From IMG/VR virus record IMGVR_UViG_3300036715_001196, positions 1-64,000 of that record: a DNA stretch of 64,000 bases. One strand, 5' to 3'. A program made the position numbers and the translations under genes. The number at the start of each line of letters is the position of its first letter. Position 1 is the stretch's first letter. The notes under the pieces are model-generated. The model saw only the letters and a list, made by a program, of their open reading frames with translations, ran no database searches and had not been told where the DNA came from. This DNA comes from a virus (lineage: Duplodnaviria; Heunggongvirae; Uroviricota; Caudoviricetes). Positions 7,961-64,000 of the stretch are shown piece after piece.

Positions 7961-7986
7961 GTAGTAATATCGCTTGCAATTAAGAT

Positions 7987-8020
7987 CCCTACATGTTATA
8001 TTATGCATGTAGGGTTTTTA
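7987..8020 (+). terminator. rho-independent terminator
   Basis: CCCTACATG...CATGTAGGG hairpin followed by TTTTTATT. Confidence 0.6.
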
Positions 8021-8043
8021 TTATCTAAACGAAAGGAGATAAA

Positions 8044-8682
8044 GTGGACGTATTAACAGGGTTTTTAGTTGGTTTTGCTGCGACACAATGGTTCTGGGCG
8101 GTATTAGTTATAGTAATACTCTTGTTGACTACAAGTGCTATCAATGAAGAAGGTTTTTGGGCAGCTACAATGTCATTTATGCTCTTAGCATTAGCATTTA
8201 GTAAATGGCCTGCTATTTGCGCATTTCTAAGCTCGCCAGTCATAGCAGTTACAGCAATCATTGCATATTTTACAATTGGTGCAATGTGGGGTGTATTCAA
8301 ATGGAAATTGTATGTCGATATGGTGTATAATATCTGTGTATCTAATCGTGAAAATTTTCTACGGTACAGAAAATTGCCAAATGATTATTTACAAAATAAT
8401 CCTAAGGCGGATGTAATCGGTTATTACATTGAATATATGCGTAATAATATACCCGGGAAATATGTACCACATGATATAAACACTATCGAAGAATTAAATA
8501 ATTCATTAGTTCCGATTGCATCAAACAATTCGTATTCGATTATTATGTGGATAACTTACTGGCCAATTTCTGCAATATGGTTTGTTGTAAGTGATTTGTT
8601 TACTGAAATTGGAAAAGCAATTTATCGCAATCTTGCACAAATATTTCAATCAGTATCTGATAGCAAATTTAAAAAGTTTTAA
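8044..8682 (+). CDS. integral membrane protein (multi-TM)
   Basis: GTG start after AAAGGAGATAAA. Several hydrophobic helices. Confidence 0.5.
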   Translation: MDVLTGFLVGFAATQWFWAVLVIVILLLTTSAINEEGFWAATMSFMLLALAFSKWPAICAFLSSPVIAVTAIIAYFTIGAMWGVFKWKLYVDMVYNICVSNRENFLRYRKLPNDYLQNNPKADVIGYYIEYMRNNIPGKYVPHDINTIEELNNSLVPIASNNSYSIIMWITYWPISAIWFVVSDLFTEIGKAIYRNLAQIFQSVSDSKFKKF

Positions 8683-8766
8683 TTGAAGTTTTAGTAAGGC
8701 GTCACTTGCAAAAAATCCCTTATATGCTATAATGTGTATAAGGGATTTTTAATTTACAGAGAATAT

Positions 8767-9105
8767 ATGAATAAAAAGATCATAGCAGCACAAATTACTA
8801 CAATATCTCCTTATGATTTTGATAAATCTTTAAAAGATATTAGAACATATATTAACGGGTTAATTGCAGAACACGGAGAAGATGCAGAGATAGATTACGA
8901 TTCTAGTTTCCATCATCCGTATGATCCAAATCCGTCGCCGCAGTATTCATTGGTTATTCGCCGTCAAGAAACTGATGAAGAATATGCGGAAAGAATAAAT
9001 CGTGAAGATCAGAGTAAGCTAAACATCGAAGAGCGAGATAGAAAAGAATTTGCACGTTTGAAAAGTTGTTCGGAGATAAGAAATGACTACCGACACCTTA
9101 AATAA
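8767..9105 (+). CDS. hypothetical protein
   Basis: Preferred ATG (MNKKIIAAQ) downstream of a TTGCAA-N17-TATAAT promoter at 8700-8732. Confidence 0.45.
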   Translation: MNKKIIAAQITTISPYDFDKSLKDIRTYINGLIAEHGEDAEIDYDSSFHHPYDPNPSPQYSLVIRRQETDEEYAERINREDQSKLNIEERDRKEFARLKSCSEIRNDYRHLK

Positions 9106-9153
9106 ATTTAGAATTTTATCAGTTGCTGAAAGTGGTGGAAATGTCGATAGTAT

Positions 9154-9402
9154 GTGTGCGTTGAGCATACAGCATATTACAACCAATCAGCAAGACACTT
9201 AACACAAGTTAAACGAATACCGAATCAGGTTATTACGACACGTATAAGCATAGACATAGCGAGGTCTATGACTGTTACAAGTAACAACTGTAGAATCTTA
9301 GTGCCTAAGATAGACATCGACGGGCTTATACAGTATTTGCAAGAAGTGAAGGTCTTTTTATCAGAAAACGATTTATGCGAAAAATTAGTAGGAAAGGCAT
9401 AA
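9154..9402 (+). CDS. hypothetical protein
   Basis: 82-aa ORF. Weak signals. Confidence 0.3.
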   Translation: MCVEHTAYYNQSARHLTQVKRIPNQVITTRISIDIARSMTVTSNNCRILVPKIDIDGLIQYLQEVKVFLSENDLCEKLVGKA

Positions 9403-20986: not shown

Positions 20987-21454
20987 ATGTCTAATCTATG
21001 GGATCACTTACCAAATGCAAAACATATTGATGCAATACTTGCATCAGTTAAAGCACACCCGGAAGAATGGAGTGCGGCGTGGGATGCGACAAGTGGTGCG
21101 GCGTGGGGTGCGGCAAGGAATGCGGCAAGGCGCGCGGCGTGGGAGGCGGCAAGGGATGCCGCCTCGGATGCGGCAGGTGGTGCGGCAAGGGTTGCGGCAT
21201 ATTATGCGGCAAGGGATGCGGCGTGGGATGCGGCAAGGGATGCGGCAAGTAGTGCGGCAAGTGGTGCGGCAAGTAGTGCGGCGTGTGATGCAATACTTGC
21301 CCTTATTGCATATGATGATTGCGCATATATGCTCGACTCACATCCGGGTGAACTTGAAATCCTTGCTAAGTTTGGTGATGAAAGAGCAATACTTTTATTA
21401 CCTGCATGTAAGGCATTTGCAGCTATTAAGATACATAAACCAGTTATTGCTTAA
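20987..21454 (+). CDS. HEAT-like repeat protein, family A member 3
   Basis: [28 protein letters not shown]. Long A/R/D/W/S repeat core. Conserved C-term. Stop overlaps the TTAACA -35. Confidence 0.8.
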   Translation: MSNLWDHLPNAKHIDAILASVKAHPEEWSAAWDATSGAAWGAARNAARRAAWEAARDAASDAAGGAARVAAYYAARDAAWDAARDAASSAASGAASSAACDAILALIAYDDCAYMLDSHPGELEILAKFGDERAILLLPACKAFAAIKIHKPVIA

Positions 21455-34579: not shown

Positions 34580-35028
34580 AAGTCTATATAGCATTATTAA
34601 AAATAGATGTAAAGAAGGTTATTGCTGTTATATTAACTAGTAATTATAAATATAATGGCCAACTTGTATCATGCACTAAAACATATTGATCAGTTGCCAC
34701 CGCGGCAAGGTGGCAGCTAAAGACCATTGCAGCTGGTAGATCCCATAAGAAATATACAGGGCCGTTACACTTCGTGAAAATACAGAAAAAATTATACAGA
34801 AGATCTTTACCAATATTTAAGAAACTTTTCGAAGATAAATAAAATATATAGAAAATTGACAAACATAATACATTTATGTACAATAACAAGTAACAACACT
34901 AAGGAATACAATGAAAGAGCTTTTAACAATACTCTATTACGAATTTTATTGCAATTTTGTATTTTCTTTGTTATCTCCTCAATACATACAGGTATATTAT
35001 CCTGTATTACTTAGTTAACTAACATCTC

Positions 35029-35104
35029 CGGCGTTCGTATAGTGGATAATACAGCGTTCTTCTAAAGCGTGAACAGGGATTCGATTTCTCTACGCCGGAC
35101 CACA
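35029..35104 (+). pseudogene. tRNA-like remnant (intact acceptor and D arms, candidate UCU anticodon, broken T arm)
   Basis: CCGGCGT...ACGCCGG-A-CCA: a perfect 7-bp acceptor stem with 3' ACCA. D arm GTAT-AGTGGATA-ATAC. Anticodon loop CTTCTAA. No canonical T stem can be formed. Followed directly by a terminator. Confidence 0.25.
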
Positions 35105-35106
35105 TA

Positions 35107-35140
35107 TAAAAAGCTACTTCTACGAAGTAGCTTTTTTATT
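35107..35140 (+). terminator. rho-independent terminator
   Basis: AAAAAGCTACTTC-TAC-GAAGTAGCTTTTTT. Confidence 0.7.
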
Positions 35141-35617
35141 TCCTATAGGCAATATGTCTATTTGCCTATATTATGCACATACGGTAGAGAAGATATTAGA
35201 AATAAATTTATTACATACGGGGCTATATAATGAGTTATTACCGCACTTTACCATACGGAAATATAGGTATGTTTCATCGTATAGATTTTGCATTAGTTCA
35301 ACGTGGCGTTAATGCAAAAGTGTCGATTTATGGTCGCGGTGGGAGAATTTATTATGTTCCCGATAACGAAATTCATAAACTACCAAAATCAGATGATTAT
35401 CGACCATAGCTGCCTGATGAAAATGGAGAGAATGTAACTGGATATATTTTAAACATAACACGGGATATTGAAACTATACGAGATTCAATGCAAAGTAATG
35501 AGTGGGTAGAAATAAAAGACTTGCCGCTTACTGCTTATTATCTAAAAGCAGATAGTTGACAATTTATTATAATTACCATATAATGCTTATATTAAGATTA
35601 CGCAGAAAGGAAATAAA

Positions 35618-42981: not shown

Positions 42982-43043
42982 GAAATGAATAGTAATTGCT
43001 AGTTATTTGTTAATTCTAAGTATATTATTAATAAGGAAAGAAA

Positions 43044-43487
43044 ATGTCTAATGCATGGGCTCACTTACCAAATGCGAAACACATTGATGCAATAATTGCA
43101 TCAGTTGAAGCACACCCAAAAGAATGGGGTGCGGGGCGGGATGCGGCGGGGGATGCAGCATATTATGCGGCAAGGTGTGCGGCGTGGGGTGCAGCCTGGG
43201 ATGCGGCAAGGGGTGCGGCAAGTAGTGCGGCAAGTAGTGCAGCATATAATGCGGCGCGGGTTGCGGCAGGGGGTACGGCGTGGGATGCAGCCTGTAGTGC
43301 GGCAAGTGGTGCGGCATGGGATGCAATACTTGCCCTTATTGCATATGATGATTGCGCATATATGCTCAACTCAAATCCAGGTGAGTTAGAAATACTTGCT
43401 AAATTCGGTAATGAAAAAGCAATTTTATTATTACCTGCATGTAATGCATTTGCAGCTATTAGGATACATACACCAGTTATTGCTTGA
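43044..43487 (+). CDS. HEAT-like repeat protein, family A member 7
   Basis: [28 protein letters not shown]. Repeats. Conserved C-term. Stop inside the next -35. Confidence 0.8.
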   Translation: MSNAWAHLPNAKHIDAIIASVEAHPKEWGAGRDAAGDAAYYAARCAAWGAAWDAARGAASSAASSAAYNAARVAAGGTAWDAACSAASGAAWDAILALIAYDDCAYMLNSNPGELEILAKFGNEKAILLLPACNAFAAIRIHTPVIA

Positions 43488-43511
43488 CAAATAATTCCGT
43501 TTGTCATATAA
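43483..43511 (+). promoter_or_regulatory. family-A cassette promoter (TTGACA-N17-TATAAT)
   Basis: TTGACAAATAATTCCGTTTGTCATATAAT + ACTACACATTAAACAAACAGGAGTACAAAATG. Confidence 0.65.
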
Positions 43512-43542
43512 TTACTACACATTAAACAAACAGGAGTACAAA

Positions 43543-44013
43543 ATGTCTAATACGTGGGATTACTTACCAAATGCGAAACATATTGATGCGATACTTGCAT
43601 CATTTAAAGCACACCCAAAAGAATGGAGTGCGGCAAGGTATGCGGCAAGGGATGCGGCGTGGGATGCGGCAAGGGATGCGGCATGGAGTGCGGCCTGTAG
43701 TGCGGCATATTATGCGGCAAGGGATGCGGCATATTATGCGGCAAGGGATGAGGTAAGGGATGCGGCATGGAGTGTGGCATATTATGCGGCAAGGGATGCG
43801 GCATATTATGCGGCGTGTGATGCGGCAAGTAGTGCGGCATGGGATGCAATACTTGCCCTTATTGCGTATGATGATTGCGCATATATGCTCGACTCAGATC
43901 CAGGTGAACTTGAAATACTTGCTAAATTAGGCGATGAAAGAGCAATACTTTTATTACCTGCATGTAAGGCATTTGCAGCTATTAATAAGATACATAAACC
44001 AGTTATTGCTTGA
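43543..44013 (+). CDS. HEAT-like repeat protein, family A member 8
   Basis: [65 protein letters not shown]... repeats. Conserved C-term. Confidence 0.8.
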   Translation: MSNTWDYLPNAKHIDAILASFKAHPKEWSAARYAARDAAWDAARDAAWSAACSAAYYAARDAAYYAARDEVRDAAWSVAYYAARDAAYYAACDAASSAAWDAILALIAYDDCAYMLDSDPGELEILAKLGDERAILLLPACKAFAAINKIHKPVIA

Positions 44014-44038
44014 CAAATGATTCCAGCTGTCATATAAT
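44010..44038 (+). promoter_or_regulatory. family-A cassette promoter (TTGACA-N17-TATAAT)
   Basis: TTGACAAATGATTCCAGCTGTCATATAAT. Confidence 0.65.
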
Positions 44039-44068
44039 TACTACATACAAACACCGCAGGAGTACAAA

Positions 44069-44464
44069 ATGTCTAATACGTGGGATTACTTACCAAATGC
44101 GAAACATATTGATGATATAATTGCATCAATTAAAGCACACCCAAAAGAATGGAGTGCGGCAAGGGATGCGGCGTGGGATGCGGCGTGGCAGACGGCGGGG
44201 GATCGGGCAAGTGGTGCGGCAAGGGATGCGGCGTGGGGTGCGGCAAGGGATGCGGTCTGGGATGCGGCGCGGGGTGCGGCATATTATGCGGCGTGGGTTG
44301 CAATCATTGCCCTTATCGCGTATGATGATTGCGCATATATGCTCAACTCCGATCCGGGCGAGTTAGAAATACTTGCTAAATTCGGTGATGAAAGAGCAAT
44401 TTTATTATTATCTGCATGTAAGGCATTTGCAGCTATTAAGACACATACACCAGTTATTGCTTGA
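44069..44464 (+). CDS. HEAT-like repeat protein, family A member 9
   Basis: [28 protein letters not shown]. Repeats. Conserved C-term. Confidence 0.8.
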   Translation: MSNTWDYLPNAKHIDDIIASIKAHPKEWSAARDAAWDAAWQTAGDRASGAARDAAWGAARDAVWDAARGAAYYAAWVAIIALIAYDDCAYMLNSDPGELEILAKFGDERAILLLSACKAFAAIKTHTPVIA

Positions 44465-44489
44465 CAAATGATTCCGGCTATCATATAAT
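44461..44489 (+). promoter_or_regulatory. family-A cassette promoter (TTGACA-N17-TATAAT)
   Basis: TTGACAAATGATTCCGGCTATCATATAAT. Confidence 0.65.
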
Positions 44490-44525
44490 AATAATTACTA
44501 CATACAAACACAACAGGAGCATAAA

Positions 44526-45014
44526 ATGCCTAATCCATGGGATTGCTTACCAAATGCTAAACATGTTGATGCAATACTTGTATCAATTAAAGCACACCCA
44601 AAAGAATGGGGTGCGGCCTGGTATGCGGTGTGGGATGCGGCAAGGGATGTGGCAAGGGATGCAGCATATTATGCGGCAAGGGATGCAGCATATTATGCGG
44701 CAAGGGATGCGGCATATTATGCGGCAAGGGATGAGGTAAGGGATGCGGCGTGGGTTGCGGTAAGGGATGCGGCGTGGGATGCGGCGTGGGAAGCGGCATG
44801 GGAAGCGGCATGGGATGCGGCAAGGAATGCGGCGTGGGGTGCAACCATTGCCCTTATTGCATATGACGATTGTGCATATATGCTCGACTCCGATCTAGGT
44901 GAATTAGAAATAATTGCTAAATTCGGCGATGAGAGAGCAATTTTATTATTGTCTGCATGTAAGGCATTTGCAGATATTAAGGAAAAAGAACATGAAGAAA
45001 GTTACAGTAAATAA
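44526..45014 (+). CDS. HEAT-like repeat protein, family A member 10
   Basis: MPNPWDCLPNAKHVDAILVSIKAHPKEW. Long repeat core. Conserved C-term. Confidence 0.8.
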   Translation: MPNPWDCLPNAKHVDAILVSIKAHPKEWGAAWYAVWDAARDVARDAAYYAARDAAYYAARDAAYYAARDEVRDAAWVAVRDAAWDAAWEAAWEAAWDAARNAAWGATIALIAYDDCAYMLDSDLGELEIIAKFGDERAILLLSACKAFADIKEKEHEESYSK

Positions 45015-55375: not shown

Positions 55376-55564
55376 ATGTCTTTACATTTATTTCTAATAT
55401 GTTGTATGGTAATATTACCTTTCTATGGTGCATTTCTCACTGTTGTGTTTTCTGTTGTAAAATTTTATAGACCGCACCTAAATAATGCTTTCTTTTTGAT
55501 TCCTGCAATATGTTTTATCCTAACATTAATTATACCATTATCGTGTCAATTTAAAGTATTATGA
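55376..55564 (+). CDS. small membrane protein
   Basis: 62 aa, two TM helices. Stop overlaps the first SLFD gene (ATGA). Confidence 0.35.
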   Translation: MSLHLFLICCMVILPFYGAFLTVVFSVVKFYRPHLNNAFFLIPAICFILTLIIPLSCQFKVL

Positions 55565-55839
55565 CTATTTTTGATACACTACGATATCCGATTAGCTGGC
55601 CGCCAACTGAGGCTGAGATTGCAAATATACCATATCCGCTGTTAGAAAAATGGGCAAGGTACACTCTTTGGAAAAGTGGTATGGATATATCCTCACATGA
55701 ATTTCCTACAGATATTATTTATAGTTTATGTAAATTTTATAAGTCTGCAAGCCTTGCTAGCGATAGTAACCTAGGTATCTGTCGTACCTCTATATACGAA
55801 GTCGAATTACTTAGAAAAATGATAAGAGATTTAGAATGA
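55561..55839 (+). CDS. SLFD-family small protein, tandem copy 1
   Basis: MTIFDTLRYPISWPPTEAEIANIP...LLRKMIRDLE. Confidence 0.5.
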   Translation: MTIFDTLRYPISWPPTEAEIANIPYPLLEKWARYTLWKSGMDISSHEFPTDIIYSLCKFYKSASLASDSNLGICRTSIYEVELLRKMIRDLE

Positions 55840-56132
55840 GCTTATTTGATGCGTTAAGATATGTAGTTAGCTATCCGCCACTTTCAGAAGAGTTATTAGT
55901 GCTGCCTCGAGATTTATTATCAAGATGGGCTAAAGAAACTAATTGGCAAATAGGCCCTGCACTTATTTCTACGTATTCTGAGACCGAGTATATTATTTTA
56001 ATTACAAATTTATGCAATTACTATGCCTCTTATAAGAATGAGGATAGCCAAAGTGACAAGCATAAAATAGCTCGACACAAAGAAGAAATTAGTATTCTTA
56101 GAAGATTAATTAAAGAATATGATAGTGATTAA
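55836..56132 (+). CDS. SLFD-family small protein, copy 2
   Basis: MSLFDALRYVVSYPPLSEELLVLP...ILRRLIKEYDSD. Confidence 0.5.
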   Translation: MSLFDALRYVVSYPPLSEELLVLPRDLLSRWAKETNWQIGPALISTYSETEYIILITNLCNYYASYKNEDSQSDKHKIARHKEEISILRRLIKEYDSD

Positions 56133-56205
56133 AAGTAGTCGATAACCAAACAAGCCTAATTTAAAGACTTACACAAAGCCCTACCTTTATAACAAGGAAT
56201 AACTT

Positions 56206-56376
56206 ATGATACCGCTGCTGCTGTTATATTATGTGTTGTTTAGTGTTTTGTTTGGCATAATAACATTATTTCTTTCTGTGATTAAACCAGGAATTGTAAA
56301 TGAATGTGTATATCAAATTGCAATTGTTTTGATATTATCAGTCCTTTTATTATTCTACATACTTATTATTAGGTAG
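56206..56376 (+). CDS. very small membrane protein (56 aa) inserted in the SLFD array
   Basis: ATG at 56206. Two hydrophobic helices. Ends 2 nt before the next SLFD start. Confidence 0.3.
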   Translation: MIPLLLLYYVLFSVLFGIITLFLSVIKPGIVNECVYQIAIVLILSVLLLFYILIIR

Positions 56377-56378
56377 AC

Positions 56379-56669
56379 ATGAGCCTATTTGATGTAATAA
56401 AATACCCGATTAGTACACCAGTAACTCTAGAGGAGTTGTATGCTATTCCAGAGCAGATTACGGTAGACTTATTAAACACTATATTAAAAATAGTATTTAA
56501 TACAGATAGACCAAAGAGGTGCTTCAGCAACCACACTGATTTATGTGAAGGTTTGCACTCGTGGTTTACCATACACGAAGGCAATGAATGGGAAGCCGCA
56601 GATGCTATGATACCAGAATTTTATATTTTACTTAGAAAAGCAATAAAGGATTACAATGAGCCTATTTGA
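56379..56669 (+). CDS. SLFD-family small protein, copy 3
   Basis: MSLFDVIKYPISTPVTLEELYAIP...LLRKAIKDYNEPI. Stop shares ATGAGCCTATTTGA with the next start. Confidence 0.55.
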   Translation: MSLFDVIKYPISTPVTLEELYAIPEQITVDLLNTILKIVFNTDRPKRCFSNHTDLCEGLHSWFTIHEGNEWEAADAMIPEFYILLRKAIKDYNEPI

Positions 56670-56895
56670 TGTGCTAAGATACCCGATTAGTGAACCACCA
56701 ACTAAGGAAGAACTTGAGGCACTACCTAACGATATATGGGATAAGTGGATAGCATATTCTCAGTGGCCAGAAAGTGCATCGAAGACACTAATAGTCGAAT
56801 GGTATGGGGGCATAGACTACATGAATTTACCGTCTGTTGAGAGGGAAATTATTAAATTAAAACAGATAATAAAGGATTACAATGGGCCTATTTGA
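56656..56895 (+). CDS. SLFD-family small protein, copy 4
   Basis: MSLFDVLRYPISEPPTKEELEALP...KQIIKDYNGPI. Confidence 0.55.
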   Translation: MSLFDVLRYPISEPPTKEELEALPNDIWDKWIAYSQWPESASKTLIVEWYGGIDYMNLPSVEREIIKLKQIIKDYNGPI

Positions 56896-57121
56896 TATGC
56901 TAAGATATCCGATAAGCGATAAGCCCACTAAAGAAGAAATAGAAGCAATTCCTGATGATATATTTAATAAATGGGTAGAAACGAGTTTTGTTTATCTGCG
57001 TAGTCGTGAAGAAGTTATTGTGTTTTTTAACAGCCACTGTAGTTTCATTAAATATATAGGTGCTCAGACCTGTATTGATGATTATCGTAAATTAATAAAG
57101 GAGTATGATGAACTTATTTGA
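56882..57121 (+). CDS. SLFD-family small protein, copy 5
   Basis: MGLFDMLRYPISDKPTKEEIEAIP...KLIKEYDELI. Confidence 0.55.
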   Translation: MGLFDMLRYPISDKPTKEEIEAIPDDIFNKWVETSFVYLRSREEVIVFFNSHCSFIKYIGAQTCIDDYRKLIKEYDELI

Positions 57122-57353
57122 TGTTCTTAAATACCCAATTAGTGTGCCTCCAACTATGGAAGAATTAGAAGCACTACCTGCTGATTTATTAATTAATTGG
57201 ATGCTAGCAGTAAATTTCGATGCTGACATGATTCGACTTAACAGTTCTGAACTTACTAATGCGGAATGGGCCTTTAGTGTTTACAATGGTGACCACGAGA
57301 GTGAAGACCTTATCATATTGGGACAAATGATAAAAGAATATGAGCCTATTTGA
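57108..57353 (+). CDS. SLFD-family small protein, copy 6
   Basis: MNLFDVLKYPISVPPTMEELEALP...GQMIKEYEPI. Confidence 0.55.
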   Translation: MNLFDVLKYPISVPPTMEELEALPADLLINWMLAVNFDADMIRLNSSELTNAEWAFSVYNGDHESEDLIILGQMIKEYEPI

Positions 57354-57597
57354 TGTTATTAAGTACCCAATAAGCGATATACCTACAGTAGAAGAATTAG
57401 AAGCCTTACCTAAAGATATATGGGATAAATGGATTGATGAATCATCGTGGGGAGGACCAGATTATAAAAACGGTAGATTAAAAATATTACTATGGTTTAA
57501 ACTTGTCGCATCAATTGTAGATCATAACATACCAGAATTGCAACAAGATGTGAGGTTATTAAGAAAGATAATAAAGGATTACAATGAGCCTATTTGA
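57340..57597 (+). CDS. SLFD-family small protein, copy 7
   Basis: MSLFDVIKYPISDIPTVEELEALP...LRKIIKDYNEPI. Confidence 0.55.
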   Translation: MSLFDVIKYPISDIPTVEELEALPKDIWDKWIDESSWGGPDYKNGRLKILLWFKLVASIVDHNIPELQQDVRLLRKIIKDYNEPI

Positions 57598-57848
57598 TGT
57601 GATTAGATATCCGATTAGTGACAGACCTACAGCAGAGGAGCTCGGGTCTCTACCGCACAACTTATTTGAGGAATGGCGAAATAAATCATTTTGGGGTTTA
57701 AAGTCCGGTCGCTTAAACAACACAACAACACAACAAGCATTGGTCAGTGGTACACAACTGCTGAACTAAACACCTGTATCCAGAACACCACATTAGCATT
57801 GATGTAAAACTACTAAGGCAACTGATTAAAGAATACCAACAGATATAG
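57584..57848 (+). pseudogene. SLFD-family copy 8, frameshifted
   Basis: N-terminal MSLFDVIRYPISDRPTAEELGSLP intact. The family C-terminus (…IDVKLLRQLIKEYQQI) reappears in a different frame at about 57790-57848. Confidence 0.5.
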
Positions 57849-57913
57849 ACAACGTGTATTAAGTATAGTATAATTAAGGCTTGTAATTAAAATTATTTTA
57901 AACATATAAACAT

Positions 57914-58162
57914 ATGAGTATATTTGATGTAATTAAGTATCCAATAAGTATTCCTCCGAAGCGTGAAGAACTCGAAGCACTCCCTGTTGATTTATTAGTA
58001 GAATGGATGTCAGCTGCTGGTTTCGCCGATCCCGACTATAGTGACCCTTCTTTATTAATATCTAGAGCATTAGCATATTATAACTGTTGGGTTAATTCAA
58101 AAAATACTATTCCTATAAATGGACCTATGTTATTAAGAAAAATGATACGAGACCTACCATGA
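57914..58162 (+). CDS. SLFD-family small protein, copy 9
   Basis: MSIFDVIKYPISIPPKREELEALP...LLRKMIRDLP. Confidence 0.55.
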   Translation: MSIFDVIKYPISIPPKREELEALPVDLLVEWMSAAGFADPDYSDPSLLISRALAYYNCWVNSKNTIPINGPMLLRKMIRDLP

Positions 58163-58383
58163 GTATCTTTGATGTAATTAAGTATCCAATAAGTGAACCA
58201 CCTACTAAGGAAGAGCTAGAAGCATTACCCGATGATTTATACAACTACTGGTGTGTGCGCGAATTCGGGTATTCCTATAGCAGAAATACTATCCATCGTT
58301 ATCTTTCTGGCTATAATCCTTCGAATGTTATTATGATAAAACAGTTAAGACAAATGATTGAGGATTACGATGAGCCTATTTGA
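58159..58383 (+). CDS. SLFD-family small protein, copy 10
   Basis: MSIFDVIKYPISEPPTKEELEALP...LRQMIEDYDEPI. Confidence 0.55.
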   Translation: MSIFDVIKYPISEPPTKEELEALPDDLYNYWCVREFGYSYSRNTIHRYLSGYNPSNVIMIKQLRQMIEDYDEPI

Positions 58384-58612
58384 TGTTATTAGGTATCCAA
58401 TTAGTGATCTTCCTACAATAAGTGAATTAGCTGCACTCCCTGAAGAAGTTTATAATATGCTACGCAAACACGATAATTATGTAAGTGTATTAAGTACATC
58501 AAGTACATCAAGTATCAAATATTTTCTTACTACACAATATGCTAGTAAACATATGCCTATCCACCAACTTAATACTCTAACAACCCTAAGAGAAGTTATA
58601 TACAATCTATAA
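58370..58612 (+). CDS. SLFD-family small protein, copy 11 (divergent C-term)
   Basis: MSLFDVIRYPISDLPTISELAALP... Confidence 0.5.
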   Translation: MSLFDVIRYPISDLPTISELAALPEEVYNMLRKHDNYVSVLSTSSTSSIKYFLTTQYASKHMPIHQLNTLTTLREVIYNL

Positions 58613-58699
58613 ATCATACCTCTTTTACTCTACACCCCCCATCAGATATTCGAACATATTATCGTACAAATAACTGCAATAGGTGTACGATAAGAAATG

Positions 58700-59040
58700 C
58701 AAAAAGAACTAAGACTTACCAAAAATACCAAAAATACACATAGAAGAATTCAAATTTAGAATATGAGAATGAGTACGAAATAAAAAAGATTATGAATATG
58801 TAATATAGAAATAGTAGTATAAAGTATAAGAAATATAAAAAGAAGAAGATAGAAACAAAGAGATTATGAATTGCTTTGTAGACTTAATAAACAAAGAGAT
58901 TATGAAGAATGAACTACGAGTGGAATATATAGTAGTATATAGTAGTATATAGAGTAGTATAGCATAATAAGAGAATATTCATAGAGAGTGTAGAAGAATA
59001 TAGATTTGTAAATTTTTGTGTACGTAGTGAAAATGAATGA
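58700..59040. other. non-coding purine-rich, cytosine-depleted tract with AGTAGTATATAG-type short repeats
   Basis: From about 58790 to 59040 the plus strand is almost entirely A/G/T (a handful of C in about 250 nt). No ORF. Multiple stops in all frames. Confidence 0.7.
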
Positions 59041-59160
59041 AGATGGATCCATCTCTCGAACGAATGGTCAAGGCCAAAAAAAGATCCCACCCTAGGTCCT
59101 AGAGCCAATTTTCCCACCTAGATTTCTAGACCAGATTTGGATTCTAAAATTGGAATCCTG

Positions 59161-59215
59161 TGTGCGTCTTTGGGTGCAGGTGCGCGAGCGCGCGTGCGTG
59201 TGCGTGCGTGCCCAC
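59161..59215. repeat. GC-rich alternating purine-pyrimidine (Z-DNA-prone) island
   Basis: GCGCGCGTGCGTGTGCGTGCGTGC: 24 nt of perfect RY alternation (59188-59211) inside a local GC spike in AT-rich DNA. Confidence 0.7.
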
Positions 59216-59227
59216 AGAAGACCACAG

Positions 59228-60290
59228 TAGAGAATCGATTGAAAAAATCACAGCAGAGAATCAATGAGAAAAGACCAAGACTTCCTATCGAAAAGACCTT
59301 GAGAAGACATTGAGTGCATTTTAGGGTCTTCAAACGCAATTCTCGATGTTCTACACCAATGCGATCGCCCACAGCAGCGAGATTTTCACAGTAGAGAATC
59401 AATGATCGAACTTCAATCTTGAAAATCCACAGTAGAGAATCAATGATTCGAAGATTTTCACAGTAGAGAATCAATGAGAAGACAATTACTGAGCACCTGT
59501 GATTCAATTTGATTCGATGTGATTCGATGTGATTCGACTGCGAATTGCATTTAAACGCCACTGCACGCCACTGTACCTAAGTAAATGAAATTCTAAGCAG
59601 CTTAGGCCTTAATAGAACATTACACTAAACAATACTCTATGTGCAATACCATGTGAAATTCTTGAAAATCCACAGTAGAGAACCAATGATTCTAAGATTT
59701 TCACAGTAGAGAACCAATGATTCTAAGATTTTCACAGTAGAGAACCAATGATTCTAAGATTTTCACAGTAGAGAATCAATGATTCGAAGATTTCCGCAGT
59801 AGAGAACCAATGATTGAAGCTCATTCTTGAAAATCCACAGTGTGCATTTCGATGATTCTTGAAAATCCACAGTGTACATTTCGATGATCGAAGCTCATTC
59901 TTGAAAATCCACAGTGTGCATTTCGATGATTCTTGAAAATCCACAGTAGAGAACCAATGATCGAAGCTCATTCTTGAAAATCCACAGTGTGCATTTCGAT
60001 GATTCTAAGATTTTCACAGTAGAGAATCAATGATTCTTGAAAATCCACAGTGTGCATTTCGATGATTCTTGAAAATCCACAGTGTACATTTCGATGATCG
60101 AAGCTCATTCTTGAAAATCCACAGTGTACATTTCGATGATTCTAAGATTTTCACAGTAGAGAATCAATGATTCTTGAAAATCCACAGTGTACATTTCGAT
60201 GATCGAAGCTCATTCTTGAAAATCCACAGTAGAGAATCAATGATTCTTGAAAATCCACAGTGTACATTTCGATGATCGAAACTCATTGTA
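59228..60290. repeat. modular iteron-like direct-repeat array (about 24 units of about 31 or 42 bp)
   Basis: Units built combinatorially: [CTTGAAAATCCACAG | CTAAGATTTTCACAG] + [TAGAGAA(C/T)CAATGAT | TGT(A/G)CATTTCGATGAT] + [T | CGAAGCTCATT]. The TGAAAATC and GATTTTCA half-sites are reverse complements. No unique spacers. Confidence 0.8.
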
Positions 60291-60427
60291 GGGTTTCATT
60301 ATTGAAATGTGTTGCTTTTATGTTAATGGGTTTCATTATTGAAATGTGTTGCTATTGTGTATAGCTATTATGTTAATGGTTTTCATTGTTGAAATGTGTT
60401 GCTATTGTGTATAGCTATTATGTTAAT
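60291..60427. repeat. about 50-bp direct repeat (2 full copies + 1 short copy)
   Basis: GG(G/T)TTTCATT(A/G)TTGAAATGTGTTGCTATTGTGTATAGCTATTATGTTAAT. Confidence 0.8.
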
Positions 60428-60476
60428 GGTTCTCGGAGTGCGAGGTTTCTATTAAGGTATCGAATTTAACTCTCGC

Positions 60477-60580
60477 GTGAGGTTAGAGCCTCGGTGGTTG
60501 ATTTGTCTACTGTGGTTTTTTACTGTGAGGTTAGAGCCTCGGTGGTTGATTTGTCTACTGTGGTTTTTTACTGTGAGGTG
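60477..60580. repeat. 48-bp direct repeat (2 copies + partial)
   Basis: GTGAGGTTAGAGCCTCGGTGGTTGATTTGTCTACTGTGGTTTTTTACT repeated twice, then GTGAGGTG. Confidence 0.85.
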
Positions 60581-60714
60581 CATTGATGCTCTGATACATT
60601 TGTTTTTGAGTACTTGGTGTAAAAGGATTCGGGTATTTGTTTGATCTTCACATAGTCATTGACAAAGAGTGGGATAACAGGTACACTGTAGGTAAGATAA
60701 CAAAGGAGTTTAAT

Positions 60715-61047
60715 ATGACAATTTCTCGTAAAGAATATGCAGAAGCGTTCAAAGCTGCTAAGAAGTATCTATCGTATGGTCAGCTGTATAATATCATTGA
60801 TTCTGATGATGCTAAAACAACATGTATCTGTTGGGCATTAGACGATAGTATTAGAGAGCATAATACTCCAAGGCATGTTGTTAGGGCAGCACAGGCACTT
60901 ATTAATGAACGCTTAGGTGGGCATCATAGTGTTTGTGACTACTTATCTTGTGGTCTAGGTATTTCACATACATCACTAACACTTAAAGCAGTACAAACAT
61001 TTCGACATGAATGGCTTGATCAGCTCATTAGTGAATTCTCGAAATGA
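60715..61047 (+). CDS. family D protein (variable body, conserved C-term TFRHEWLDQLISEFSK), module copy 1
   Basis: ATG after AAAGGAGTTTAAT. TTGACA-N17-TACACT upstream. Stop overlaps the next start (ATGA). Confidence 0.5.
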   Translation: MTISRKEYAEAFKAAKKYLSYGQLYNIIDSDDAKTTCICWALDDSIREHNTPRHVVRAAQALINERLGGHHSVCDYLSCGLGISHTSLTLKAVQTFRHEWLDQLISEFSK

Positions 61048-61424
61048 TTCTCCCTAATGGTCTGCGTAATCGAGAACACATTATTAGACTACTCGATCAT
61101 GCTAAAGCAAACCCCGAAGCTTGGTCAGCGATACGTAATGAACCCCCGACTATGTTGTTTAGTAGATTGCGGAGTGGGATCGGAATAACATTATCTCAAC
61201 TAATAAGCCGTATAGGTCAAGAATTGACAGGCATCAATGTAGTCCCAGATTGTATATTAGCACTTGTCTTATATGATTGTGCATATATGCTTGATTCACA
61301 TCCGGGTGAGCTTGAAATACTTGCTAAGTTCGGTAATGATGAAGCTTATTTGATGCTTAATGCATGTAGATTACTTCATGGTCTAGAACTTGCGTTTCAA
61401 TGTAGTGTTTCAGACAATGATTGA
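61044..61424 (+). CDS. divergent family A member 16, module copy 1
   Basis: MILPNGLRNREHIIRLLDHAKANPEAW parallels [21 protein letters not shown]-term [39 protein letters not shown]. Stop inside the next -35. Confidence 0.6.
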   Translation: MILPNGLRNREHIIRLLDHAKANPEAWSAIRNEPPTMLFSRLRSGIGITLSQLISRIGQELTGINVVPDCILALVLYDCAYMLDSHPGELEILAKFGNDEAYLMLNACRLLHGLELAFQCSVSDND

Positions 61425-61449
61425 CAAATGATTCCGTTTGTCATATAAT
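61421..61449 (+). promoter_or_regulatory. family-A-type promoter cassette upstream of a family D gene
   Basis: TTGACAAATGATTCCGTTTGTCATATAAT + ACTACACATTAAACAAACAGGAGTAGAAAATG. Confidence 0.65.
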
Positions 61450-61479
61450 TACTACACATTAAACAAACAGGAGTAGAAA

Positions 61480-61821
61480 ATGTCTTATACTAAACAAAAC
61501 CGCAAAACTATTCACTCACAGTTGGTTGCTGCAAAGAAACATTTGTGGACTGGTGTTGGTAAAAAGTATCTAACTGAATATATTTGTATAGCTGTAATTA
61601 AAGGGTTGGTCGCATCGCGTAGTGATCTGAACTGGAGCATAACTACGGATATGATTGAAAGTCGATTAAGAGAGCGCACCGGCAAATGTATTGATCTCAG
61701 AACTGTGAGGGACTGGCTCATTGAGTATGCTAAAATCCCAGTAGCTGACATAACAAATGAATCATTGCAAACATATCGACATGAATGGCTTGATCAGCTC
61801 ATTAGTGAATTCTCGGAATGA
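61480..61821 (+). CDS. family D protein, module copy 2
   Basis: MSYTKQNRKTIHSQLVAAKKHLW... ends LQTYRHEWLDQLISEFSE. Confidence 0.55.
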   Translation: MSYTKQNRKTIHSQLVAAKKHLWTGVGKKYLTEYICIAVIKGLVASRSDLNWSITTDMIESRLRERTGKCIDLRTVRDWLIEYAKIPVADITNESLQTYRHEWLDQLISEFSE

Positions 61822-61979
61822 TTCTCCCTAATGATTTGCGTAATGAACCCTCAACTATGTTGTTTAGTAGATTGTGGAGTGAGCTTGAAATACTTGCTAA
61901 GTTAGGTAATCTATATGCTTGCTTGTTATACAATGCATGTAAGGTAATTCACGGTATTCAACTAGAGTTTGACAAATGA
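61818..61979 (+). pseudogene. internally deleted remnant of a family-A gene (module copy 2)
   Basis: MILPNDLRNEPSTMLFSRLWSELEILAKLGNLYACLLYNACKVIHGIQLEFDK: N-terminus and C-terminus of copy 1 are fused, with two internal deletions. Stop lies inside the next -35. Confidence 0.55.
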
Positions 61980-61997
61980 TTCCATTTGTCATATAAT
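61969..61997 (+). promoter_or_regulatory. family-A-type promoter cassette
   Basis: TTGACAAATGATTCCATTTGTCATATAAT + ACTACACATTAAACAAACAGGAGTTGGTATG. Confidence 0.65.
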
Positions 61998-62026
61998 TAC
62001 TACACATTAAACAAACAGGAGTTGGT

Positions 62027-62368
62027 ATGTCTTATACTAAACAAAACCGCAAAACTATTCACTCACAGTTGGTTGCTGCAAAGAAACATTTGTGGGCTGG
62101 TGTTGGTAAAAGGTATCTAACTAGATATATTTGCGTGGCTGTAGTTGACGGGGTGCTTGCATCGCGTAGTGATCTGGACTGGAGCATGACTACGGGTATG
62201 ATTGAAAGTCGGTTAGGAAAGTGCATCGATGGACATATTAGTGCCAGAACTGTAAGAGGATGGCTCATTGAGTATGCTAAAATCCCAGTAGCTGACATAA
62301 CAGATGAATCATTGCAAACATTTCGACATGAATGGCTTGATGAATTGATTAAGGAGTTTTCAAAGTGA
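62027..62368 (+). CDS. family D protein, module copy 3
   Basis: Near-identical N-terminus to 61480. Ends LQTFRHEWLDELIKEFSK. Confidence 0.55.
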   Translation: MSYTKQNRKTIHSQLVAAKKHLWAGVGKRYLTRYICVAVVDGVLASRSDLDWSMTTGMIESRLGKCIDGHISARTVRGWLIEYAKIPVADITDESLQTFRHEWLDELIKEFSK

Positions 62369-62778
62369 CTATAGTAGTACCTAAATATGTTTGCAACCGT
62401 GAACATATCTTAAGGCTCATTGAGCATTCTCGCAAGAACCCATTGTTGTGGAAACAGCTATCAGACGAGCGCAGTCATACTCACTTCTTTGATGCTAGAG
62501 ATAAAACTATTCTTAGATACGAAGATCAACTATCTTGGGATGGAAAAATTCTACTAGACATAAGCAATATTATTACAACTAATGCATATACTGTTTTGGA
62601 TTGTATAGTATGCTTATTTGCATATGATGATTGTGCATATATGCTTGATTCACATCCGGGTGAGCTTGAAATACTTGCTAAGTTTGATAATCCATATGCT
62701 TGCTTGTTATACAATGCATGTAGAATACTTCATGGTCTAGAACCTATGTTTCAATGTAGTGTTTCAGACAATGATTGA
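62365..62778 (+). CDS. divergent family A member 17, module copy 3
   Basis: C-term [55 protein letters not shown]. Confidence 0.6.
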   Translation: MTIVVPKYVCNREHILRLIEHSRKNPLLWKQLSDERSHTHFFDARDKTILRYEDQLSWDGKILLDISNIITTNAYTVLDCIVCLFAYDDCAYMLDSHPGELEILAKFDNPYACLLYNACRILHGLEPMFQCSVSDND

Positions 62779-62803
62779 CATGTGATTCCATTTGTCGTAT
62801 AAT
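62775..62803 (+). promoter_or_regulatory. family-A-type promoter cassette variant
   Basis: TTGACATGTGATTCCATTTGTCGTATAAT + ACTACATACACAAACAAAACAGGAGTTGGATATG. Confidence 0.6.
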
Positions 62804-62829
62804 TACTACATACACAAACAAAACAGGAG

Positions 62830-63252
62830 TTGGATATGAGTACTTCCTCAACAATCGGTTACGCAGATAAGAGTGGTAATATCTTTTCAATACGCTGTAA
62901 CTGGGGTGGAAATATCTATGAAGCTAGTAAGTTGCTTAATACTCACTACACCCAACGTGATAAGGTCGTACAATTAGTTTCATTGGGTAACTTATGTGTA
63001 CTCAAAGCTCGTATAGAGGCGTACAACCCTACAAAGCATAGCTATACTACACCCGAGCAAGGGGTTTGCGTGTTCTATGGGCGTGATAGAGGTGAACCAT
63101 GCCATGAAACAAATATGCATCGTAATGTTGAAACTTTTCTTGAAGACTCCCCAGATGATACATACACGTTCTTATTCGATAGCGGGCACTGGTATGTATC
63201 AGACGGTGGTGCTTTTGTATTGTTGGCTGAATTACTTTTAACATACAACTAA
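62830..63252 (+). CDS. hypothetical protein
   Basis: 140-aa ORF driven by the cassette promoter. Confidence 0.45.
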   Translation: MDMSTSSTIGYADKSGNIFSIRCNWGGNIYEASKLLNTHYTQRDKVVQLVSLGNLCVLKARIEAYNPTKHSYTTPEQGVCVFYGRDRGEPCHETNMHRNVETFLEDSPDDTYTFLFDSGHWYVSDGGAFVLLAELLLTYN

Positions 63253-63253
63253 T

Positions 63254-63652
63254 ATGGATAAGATCAAAGACATTGCGAAAGCTACTCGCATTTGGGCTGA
63301 AGACTATGCTCATACACATAATATGGCAGCAGACTTATGCGGTATGTGTGCTATAGCCTCGGCAGAACTCTTTACTAATTTGATTTTTGCAGGATTTAAG
63401 CCCGAGATAAGAATTTCAAACAGTTTTAGTGGCAATCATGTTTACTGTGTGGTAGATGATCATGTTGTTGATGTTACTGCAACACAATTTCATCCTTTTG
63501 AAGAAGAAACAGTTGTTATACTTCATGAGTGTGAAGCTGCTGCATATAATTTCTATGTTGATGATATTCACTATATTGAAAGTATAAAGGCACTCGTTAA
63601 ATATCAAAAGAAGTATGATTGGCCGAAGAAACAACGGGTATCTATTGCTTGA
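63254..63652 (+). CDS. hypothetical protein
   Basis: 132-aa ORF, 1 nt after the upstream stop. Confidence 0.45.
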   Translation: MDKIKDIAKATRIWAEDYAHTHNMAADLCGMCAIASAELFTNLIFAGFKPEIRISNSFSGNHVYCVVDDHVVDVTATQFHPFEEETVVILHECEAAAYNFYVDDIHYIESIKALVKYQKKYDWPKKQRVSIA

Positions 63653-63707: not shown

Positions 63708-64000
63708 ATGTCTAATGCATGGGATCACTTACCAAATGCGAAACACATTGATGCAATACTTGCATCAGTTAAAGCACACCCAAAAGAATGGGGTGCGGCG
63801 CGGGCTGCGGCGCGGATTGCGGTAAGTGATGCGGCATGGGGTGCAGCATGGGGTGCAGCACGAGGTGCAGCATGGGGTGCAGCACGGGGTGCATCGTGGG
63901 ATGCGGCAAGGGGTGCGGAATGGGATGCGGCAAGTAGTGCGGCATATTATACAGCAAAGGGCGCAGCGGGGGATGCAATCGTCGCCCTTATTGTATATGA
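63708..64000 (+). CDS. HEAT-like repeat protein, family A member 18 (3' end beyond the window)
   Basis: [28 protein letters not shown] followed by AARAAA/AAWGAA repeats. Truncated by the window edge. Confidence 0.7.
   Translation, partial: MSNAWDHLPNAKHIDAILASVKAHPKEWGAARAAARIAVSDAAWGAAWGAARGAAWGAARGASWDAARGAEWDAASSAAYYTAKGAAGDAIVALIVY

Follow-up and report, generated by a model that had tools for sequence, protein, structure and literature searches.

Giant phages that carry long terminal repeats abound in nature, and the recognition of their genome ends, the start of their replication and the control of their early region are essentially undescribed. In phage T5, repeat region 3, the injection stop signal, is an untranslated stretch of nested repeats, 1.2 kb long, which extends across the end of the terminal repeat; it holds nine copies of the DRD direct repeat besides inverted repeats and palindromes, is better conserved than the neighbouring open reading frames (ORFs), and is believed to act in cis via a bound protein (bioRxiv 10.1101/866236). 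In the Pseudomonas jumbo phage PA5oct the direct terminal repeat is 39 kb long and holds 105 genes, most of them early, together with promoters of the host type and many abundant non-coding RNAs (PMC7318152). Here we analysed 64,000 nucleotides of a Caudoviricetes virus (IMG/VR record IMGVR_UViG_3300036715_001196, positions 1 to 64,000; hereafter the window), in which a repeat-built block of 2.1 kb at 58613-60714 holds no gene. The block is very probably a conserved DNA control region that acts in cis and to which, we infer, protein binds. As to its role, we tentatively favour, with a probability of about 0.3, a control region at the boundary of a long direct terminal repeat, which may serve end recognition, packaging or staged DNA entry in the manner of T5 repeat region 3. 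The block belongs to no described family, and its kind, the untranslated repeat region of large virulent phages, is already known.

ORFs overlapping the block are all short and unconserved, and none is a credible gene. As had been claimed, this is the one large gene-free region of the window: the sole further gap of more than 500 nt (34890-35617, 0.7 kb) lies beside tRNA genes. All five features listed in the original prediction, namely a nearly cytosine-free arm with short repeats, a GC spike with perfect purine-pyrimidine alternation, an array of modular units and two sets of longer direct repeats, were recovered at the same coordinates. The elements of the block are as follows.

58613-59045, + strand: AT-rich, purine-rich arm poor in C, with short repeats of 9-12 nt (composition and repeat scan)
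59022-59061, + strand: core, consisting of ACGTA (59022-59026), about 25 nt, and CATCTCTCGA (59050-59059) (12-locus alignment A4 and position search)
59099-59211, + strand: GC-rich conserved element 'b123' (nhmmer with a profile of relatives, E=4e-6; 12-locus alignment)
59213-59480, + strand: proximal cluster of four degenerate and three well-formed CACAG units (the latter at 59382-59469), with unique sequence between
59498-59537, + strand: four copies of TGTGATTCGA with a 10-nt period
59660-60287, + strand: main array of 18 modular units at a spacing of 31, 32, 41 or 42 nt
60291-60434, + strand: 50-nt repeat, each copy with a GG(G/T)TTTCAT-TGAAAT hairpin
60477-60572, + strand: 48-nt repeat in two exact copies, each with GAGCCTCGGTGG
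60659-60714, + strand: right edge, with promoter-like TTGACA-17-TACACT and an AAGGAG ribosome-binding site for the gene 60715-61047

Repeat region 3 of T5 is the closest described analogue of this block. In both phages a gene-free block of at least 1.2 kb lies among small early genes read by the host RNA polymerase, and the order of the elements is conserved in relatives. On the other hand, the two share no sequence similarity, and the window is without the hallmark of T5, paired consensus DnaA boxes in large inverted repeats; its sole long-range inverted copies are two units within the 48-nt repeats. T5, in turn, has nothing like the phased array of 18 units. Moreover, the T5 region has been placed at the end of the terminal repeat, whereas such a position is only a proposal for our block.

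PA5oct offers a second parallel. Both boundaries of its terminal repeat lie in gene-free gaps, and the left gap lies between two paralog arrays, with a C-poor, repeat-rich arm abutting the end; this order of paralog array and C-poor arm is the same as in the window. As in the window, small early genes with TTGAC/TATAAT promoters are found in the 39-kb terminal repeat. At 7966-9166, PA5oct also has 1.2 kb without genes, in which a long palindrome, ncRNA001, three tandem copies of a 42-nt repeat and promoters are found. However, the flanking gene families are not shared, the window block has no recognisable RNA gene, and the homology between the ncRNA001 region and our conserved core was not significant. 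We therefore take the parallel with PA5oct as architectural only. Right after the terminator of ncRNA001, a coding sequence annotated as 'extensin-like protein' (8503-8724) lies wholly on the 42-nt tandem repeat and is probably not a gene.

The block is not a product of faulty assembly. Contig L103, from an independent metagenome of another sample, is colinear with the window across the entire block, with seven single-nucleotide polymorphisms (SNPs) and the same 18 array units, and the same architecture stands at the same place in many relatives. Several short metagenome contigs begin or end within the array, as they might if a repeat had been mis-joined or collapsed at a contig junction, but since L103 spans the whole block colinearly, we consider such an artefact extremely improbable. 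In strain L003, whose flanks are about 99% identical to the window, the array has 10 units and the alternating tract is 32 nt long; judging from L103 and L003, array and tract are genuine length polymorphisms. As for the SNPs, the array is identical in the window and L103, and six of the seven fall within 45 nt (58995-59039), a cluster that overlaps the ACGTA of the core and stops about 10 nt before CATCTCTCGA.

The block keeps its place in a clade of related phages: in at least 12 related contigs of uncultured giant phages a smaller block of 1.1-1.4 kb, likewise free of genes, stands between an array of 'MSLFD' paralogs and small genes driven by promoters. Loci fetched with the family of small paralogous proteins encoded left of the block (MSLFD family, alignment A2) comprised 6 viral contigs and 37 metagenome contigs, and in every related contig the block has this family on its left. 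Five contigs (L010, L011, L012, L013 and L015) show the paralog array, then a gene-free block of 1.1-1.4 kb, a sigma-70-type promoter and homologues of the small genes to the right of the window's block. With a profile made from three relatives, the GC spike of the window (59099-59211) was recovered at E=4e-6. By profile search the core-region element was found also in L013, L015, L077, L080, L082, L084, L091 and L094-L097, always on the gene strand; besides the five block-bearing contigs it is present in seven metagenome loci, with the same strand each time. In alignment A4 (12 loci) the clade consensus of the core is ACG(TA)-N25-(TGA)ACCTCTCTCGG(T)A, of which C, G and CTCTC are invariant; in its short form, ACG(TA)-N25-CCTCTCTCGG, it is invariant over the 12 loci, although the flanking proteins of these phages are only 30-60% identical. 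The window holds a single copy, ACGTA-N25-CTCTCTCG, and the orientation is always that of the genes.

The layout around the core is shared as well. Over the 12 loci the core is followed by GGTCAGATTYGGAATCCT, two to four repeats of about 13 nt (GGAATCCTRYR) and a GC-rich hairpin of variable sequence, and a CAGATTTGG/GGAATCCT repeat cluster common to the clade is part of this conserved layout. In the window, the b123 element contains CCAGATTTGGATTCTAAAATTGGAATCCTG (59131-59160), which holds a GGATTC/GAATCC hairpin or palindrome, then TTTGGGTGCAGG, a GCGCG-AG-CGCGC hairpin and the purine-pyrimidine tract. This tract, GCGCGCGTGCGTGTGCGTGCGTGC at 59188-59211, alternates perfectly over 24 nt, as had been noticed, is the longest of the window, and is predicted to be Z-DNA-prone. 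An alternating tract of 14-24 nt is found at the same relative place in 7 of the 12 loci, in most of which it is the longest of the locus. In each of the 13 loci compared, the 150-300 nt that precede the core on its left contain little C and many purines, and repeats with a 10-nt period occur there in 6 of the 13 (the window included), each locus with its own sequence.

No bacterial source of the core was found. An 18-mer of the core has 14 exact matches in bacterial genomes, none with the full element, and we therefore do not regard the core as a host-derived motif. In viral contigs a 15-mer gave 47 matches, of which only three were real, all on contigs already known. Neither does the core look like RNA: RNAalifold gave 0 consensus pairs, single-sequence folds reached a z of only about -3 on the + strand, and Rfam searches of the relatives and of the 55-64 kb part of the window yielded nothing above noise. 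With no consensus pairs and no Rfam match, the core behaves as a DNA signal rather than a structured RNA.

Beside this invariant signal, the CACAG array is specific to the lineage. Each unit has a 5' arm (TTCTTGAAAATC or TTCTAAGATTTT), a CACAG anchor and a 3' arm (TAGAGAAYCAATGA or TGTRCATTTCGATGA), with an optional insert of 10 nt, TCGAAGCTCA. The block has 25 CACAG/CGCAG anchors. The unit pattern is matched at 21 sites on the + strand (one with a mismatch), of which 18 are contiguous at 59660-60287, and at two inverted sites within the 48-nt repeats, so that 23 sites were observed where chance would give 0.47, and the rest of the window has none. The original prediction of about 24 modular 31/42-bp units was sound as to the array and its modules, but the modules are not freely combined, for TTCTAAGATTTT is never joined to the TGTRCATTTCGATGA arm. 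The reverse-complementary half-sites from which a dimeric binder had been predicted were a misreading: TGAAAATC and GATTTTCA are alternative versions of one arm in different units. The 18 anchors fall on one face of the helix (resultant 0.92 for a period of 10.45 bp), and the length of the optional insert is exactly 10 nt; both argue for a constrained spacing, as would be expected for cooperative protein binding.

Among the phages compared, large tandem arrays are found in this phage only, plus PA5oct, where the sequence is unrelated. In the relatives' blocks the unit core CAC(A/T)GTR is nevertheless enriched, 9-fold in L077, 8-fold in L011 and 3.5-fold in L010, in dispersed copies of both orientations. 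Other short motifs seen on reading are specific to lineages, such as GATACTCTATC in L010 and L012 and CTATGC/GCATAG in L011. Such variation of repeat sequences among relatives is expected for sites that co-evolve with their binding protein. The copy number of the array depends on the strain (18 in the window and L103, 10 in L003), and the picture is one of an old set of binding sites expanded in this lineage by unequal recombination. A search of viral contigs with the exact repeat core of the array gave no match.

Phased tandem units of 31-42 nt also bring to mind a partition site, that is, a centromere-like array bound by a ParB- or ParR-type protein. The sopC locus of plasmid F consists of 12 repeats of 43 bp, and parC of R1 is likewise made of tandem repeats; both resemble the array in their many phased units of similar size. 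However, a scan of 40 window proteins, including most of the larger ORFs, found no ParA, ParB or ParR-like protein, nor any replication initiator, helicase, primase, polymerase or terminase. The block has no DNA similarity to plasmids, the relatives have no arrays, and the genes encoded suggest a virulent jumbo phage, which makes a partition function very unlikely.

To place the block, the nature of the whole window has to be considered. Its MoxR-type ATPase, which has a VWA partner, is 56% identical to that of PA5oct and has remoter kin in Rak2-type and other giant phages; a NinI-like phosphatase, HNH and homing endonucleases and an endolysin-like protein are also encoded. By its genes the source is an uncultured jumbo phage with a distant kinship to PA5oct, its closest cultured relative, and to phages of the Rak2 type, and it looks virulent; no DNA-level match to the window was found in cultured phages. 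Pieces of the window are present, identical or 99% identical, on short contigs from several JGI metagenomes and Logan assemblies; samples that contain this phage are SRR11723144, SRR11727740 and JGI 3300035180-82, 3300035661 and 3300037010. The window has about 36% GC over its 64 kb, two tRNA genes and nearly all of its genes on the + strand. Near-consensus sigma-70 promoters (at least 11 of 12 positions) number 37 on the + strand, 16 of them perfect (12/12), versus one on the - strand, and because of this bias we regard the whole window as 'early-type' DNA read by the host polymerase. The density of consensus host-type promoters across positions 1-64000 is unusually high.

The boundary of a long direct terminal repeat is the reading that we rank first, because all 64 kb are of the early type, because the boundaries in PA5oct and T5 lie in gene-free repeat blocks, and because the core is unique, oriented and deeply conserved. 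A boundary inside the window is also likely a priori, since the window resembles the content of a terminal repeat in its small genes, its two tRNA genes and its + strand promoters. The block would then sit at or beside the physical end of the genome. From left to right, the layout comprises an easily melted, strand-asymmetric AT-rich arm, the core, the CAGATTTGG/GGAATCCT sites, the GC hairpin with the Z-DNA-prone tract, and the CACAG sites, with two inverted CACAG copies placed ahead of the next promoter. The invariant core and the GC element would be recognised by a conserved packaging or end-processing machinery, and the phased repeats would recruit a phage-specific protein by which the DNA end is organised, either for packaging or for entry of the DNA in stages. 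More specifically, it is conceivable, though doubtful, that the core, the GGAATCCT cluster, the GC hairpin and the Z-DNA-prone tract form an undescribed end-recognition or initiation signal of this jumbo-phage clade, with the CACAG array as a phage-specific scaffold for staged entry or end processing, comparable to the two-step process of T5.

Several observations weigh against a terminal-repeat boundary. The end junction of PA5oct gave no significant match to the core, either by profile search or by local alignment. Strong promoters stand on both sides of the block, which is therefore not a boundary between early and late genes. The relative L014 has the same flanking genes and no block at all. 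In L011 and L077 the block lies in the middle of long contigs that run through it, which neither supports nor excludes an end; the colinearity of L103 with the window would likewise be expected in either case. No terminase gene was found near the block among the window proteins scanned. Finally, relatives have partial copies of the CAGATTTGG/GGAATCCT cluster at 40-120 nt upstream of ordinary promoters, and such copies fit the site of a transcription factor better than that of a terminase. These second, partial copies of a CAGATTTGG/GGAATCCTGCG cluster are at L010 18970-19035, L096 738-809 and L099 2945-2998; the promoter is clearly of the sigma-70 type at L010 18970 and L099 2945 and not clear at L096 738. 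This suggests that the CAGATTTGG/GGAATCCT cluster at least may bind a transcription or nucleoid factor.

The same partial copies would also be at home in a transcribed regulatory spacer, an untranslated part of an early transcription unit that carries sites for a regulator or nucleoid protein and, in the relatives, a structured RNA gene of about 300 nt. The array would then be a neutral or nearly neutral minisatellite, grown by unequal recombination where the RNA gene was lost, and the C-poor start may simply protect the untranslated transcript from termination by host Rho. The blocks of the relatives do hold, at their centre, an element of about 300 nt (L010 11347-11663, L012 11823-12139, L011 11804-12125, L013 12210-12495, L015 12071-12349), near-identical between L010/L012 and L011, which are otherwise diverged phages, and recognisably related in L013 and L015. 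Its sequence opens with GATAAATARCATTGTAG, includes GGTATTGAGTCC, and closes with a hairpin and a T-rich stretch behind it; its hairpins hold two compensatory pairs, Rfam has no counterpart, and we regard it as a candidate for a new non-coding RNA of phages. On either side of it stand the short lineage-specific motifs, GATACTCTATC in L010/L012 and CTATGC/GCATAG in L011. The gaps in the PA5oct terminal repeat, with abundant non-coding RNAs, one of them followed by a tandem repeat (PMC7318152), are in line with such a spacer. So are the difference in array copy number between near-identical strains (18 vs 10), the absence of large arrays in other relatives and the absence of a strong terminator between the upstream operon and the block. 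However, the 300-nt element was not found in the window, where the CACAG units occupy its place, the block shows no visible promoter-terminator pair for an RNA gene, and the conserved core has no RNA structure. Moreover, neutral slippage alone would give neither helical phasing nor a 10-nt insert, and the unit sites are confined to one locus. We regard such a spacer as possible, and it comes second in our ranking after the terminal-repeat boundary; third is a replication origin, followed by partition and, last, an assembly artefact.

A replication origin was the first function named in the original prediction. In such an origin a phage-specific initiator would bind the phased CACAG iterons, the AT-rich arm would melt or, when transcribed from upstream, form a persistent R-loop with a purine-rich RNA, the GC cluster would bound the unwinding, and the two inverted iterons before the next promoter would give feedback control. 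The left arm would be the candidate for the unwinding region. Positions 58740-59045 contain 11 C in 306 nt, the lowest-C and lowest-GC (23%) 300-nt window of the 64 kb, which bears out the claim of a nearly cytosine-free arm, and the longest C-free run of the window (79 nt) lies inside the arm; the short repeats here include TACCAAAAA at 58717-58737 and TATATAGTAG at 58926-58962. This most AT-rich and most strand-skewed 300 nt adjoins the GC cluster. The units stand 0.2-0.9 kb to the right of it; however, the arm is 300-440 nt long, and about 600 nt separate it from the main array. Direct repeats in helical phase, two inverted units 90-150 nt upstream of the promoter at 60659, repeat sequences that are specific to lineages within a conserved layout, and transcription that comes into the block from upstream would all be in keeping with an origin.

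Known iteron origins (lambda ori, P1 oriR/incA, F, R6K, pSC101) similarly have direct repeats on one face of the helix beside an AT-rich stretch, inverted partial copies near a promoter, and a lineage-specific repeat sequence. Their units, however, are about 17-22 nt, against 31-42 nt here, and here there is no adjacent initiator gene, no DnaA box and no skew signal. The cumulative GC skew, by which the origin was to be checked, rises monotonically through the block with no inflection or change of sign when run on the window, a weak test since the genes are co-oriented. The block has no exact DnaA box (TTWTNCACA), the nine in the window are no more than expected by chance, and the arms of the units are one or two mismatches off the consensus. 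No initiator, helicase, primase or polymerase gene came up in the protein scan. The protein p110, encoded next to the block, is predicted by AlphaFold (pLDDT 79.5) as a bundle of five helices; it occurs as three paralogs and has a shallow family of five homologues. We considered p110 as the repeat-binding protein and rejected it, as a Foldseek search of the PDB returned no hit with E below 1 and thus no known DNA-binding fold. In addition, the relatives carry just a few dispersed sites, and the a priori chance that a single origin of a genome of about 300 kb lies within 64 kb is only about 1 in 5. Taken together, an origin is unlikely.

What stands of the original prediction of an origin, partition or packaging site is therefore a cis-acting locus built of repeats, with conserved position and sub-elements and with phased units, and nothing in the data separates these three functions from one another. 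Irrespective of this, the block offers a concrete target, a short invariant DNA signal common to at least a dozen uncultured phages beside repeats that vary among lineages. If the block marks a genome end, as we favour, or an origin, sequence alone would suffice to orient complete genomes of the clade and to predict their ends, and the signal would lead to the proteins that recognise it. As a mere regulatory spacer, the block would still serve as a synteny marker and show that assemblies of metagenomes tend to break here.

The repeats to the right of the array agree with the original prediction. The 50-nt repeat is present in 2.4 copies at 95% identity (60314-60431), which accounts for the two full and one short copy described, or in three copies in a looser register. 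The two copies of the 48-nt repeat are exact, and each holds one inverted CACAG unit on the minus strand (60504-60519 and 60552-60567). The right arms of the relatives contain GGGTTTC(G/A) repeats like those of the 50-nt repeat, and L077 has a segment resembling the 48-nt repeat; since pairwise alignment is weak (p 0.0-0.12), we keep this kinship to a resemblance of motifs.

With regard to the array itself, the 13 of 18 units that have the TTCTTGAAAATC arm read TTGAAA-17/18-(A/G)ATGAT, a 9/12 match to the sigma-70 promoter, so that the array may double as a row of weak polymerase-binding sites. A CRISPR-like or anti-CRISPR repeat RNA was rejected because the units abut without spacers and no repeat hairpin was seen on reading them, and a CsrA-type sponge RNA because inspection of the units found no GGA motifs.

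The block is flanked on both sides by small paralogous genes.

55561-58612, + strand: left flank, 12 tandem small paralogous genes of the 'MSLFDVIKYPIS...' family ('MSLFD') (ORFs, alignment A2 and synteny)
60715-63652, + strand: right flank, cassettes of small paralogous genes, with perfect TTGACA-17-TATAAT promoters at 61421, 61969, 62775 and 63649

Neighbouring MSLFD paralogs, whose pattern is MSLFDVIKYPIS..PPT.EELEALP...LRK.IKDY.EPI, often share a few codons at their ends. Contigs of uncultured jumbo phages carry the family widely, cultured phages lack it, and it has no match in Pfam, PHROG or PDB. More generally, the families flanking the block were not found in cultured phages, and PDB sequence searches with the three flanking families gave no match. 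On the right, a two-gene cassette is repeated three times at 60715-62778 (p110/p126; p113 with a 53-aa remnant; p113/p137); the second and third copies stand behind a perfect TTGACA-17-TATAAT, the first behind TTGACA-17-TACACT.

Finally, the DNA that continues past position 64000 (contigs L004-L007) is about 80% identical to positions 43041-44678 of the window. The two are a diverged duplication, whose genes are of the phrog_8332 type and encode about 140 aa. The GC content rises to 74-76% per 100 nt at about 21090 and about 44150, in or near two ORFs of the same type (20987-21454 and 43501-44013).

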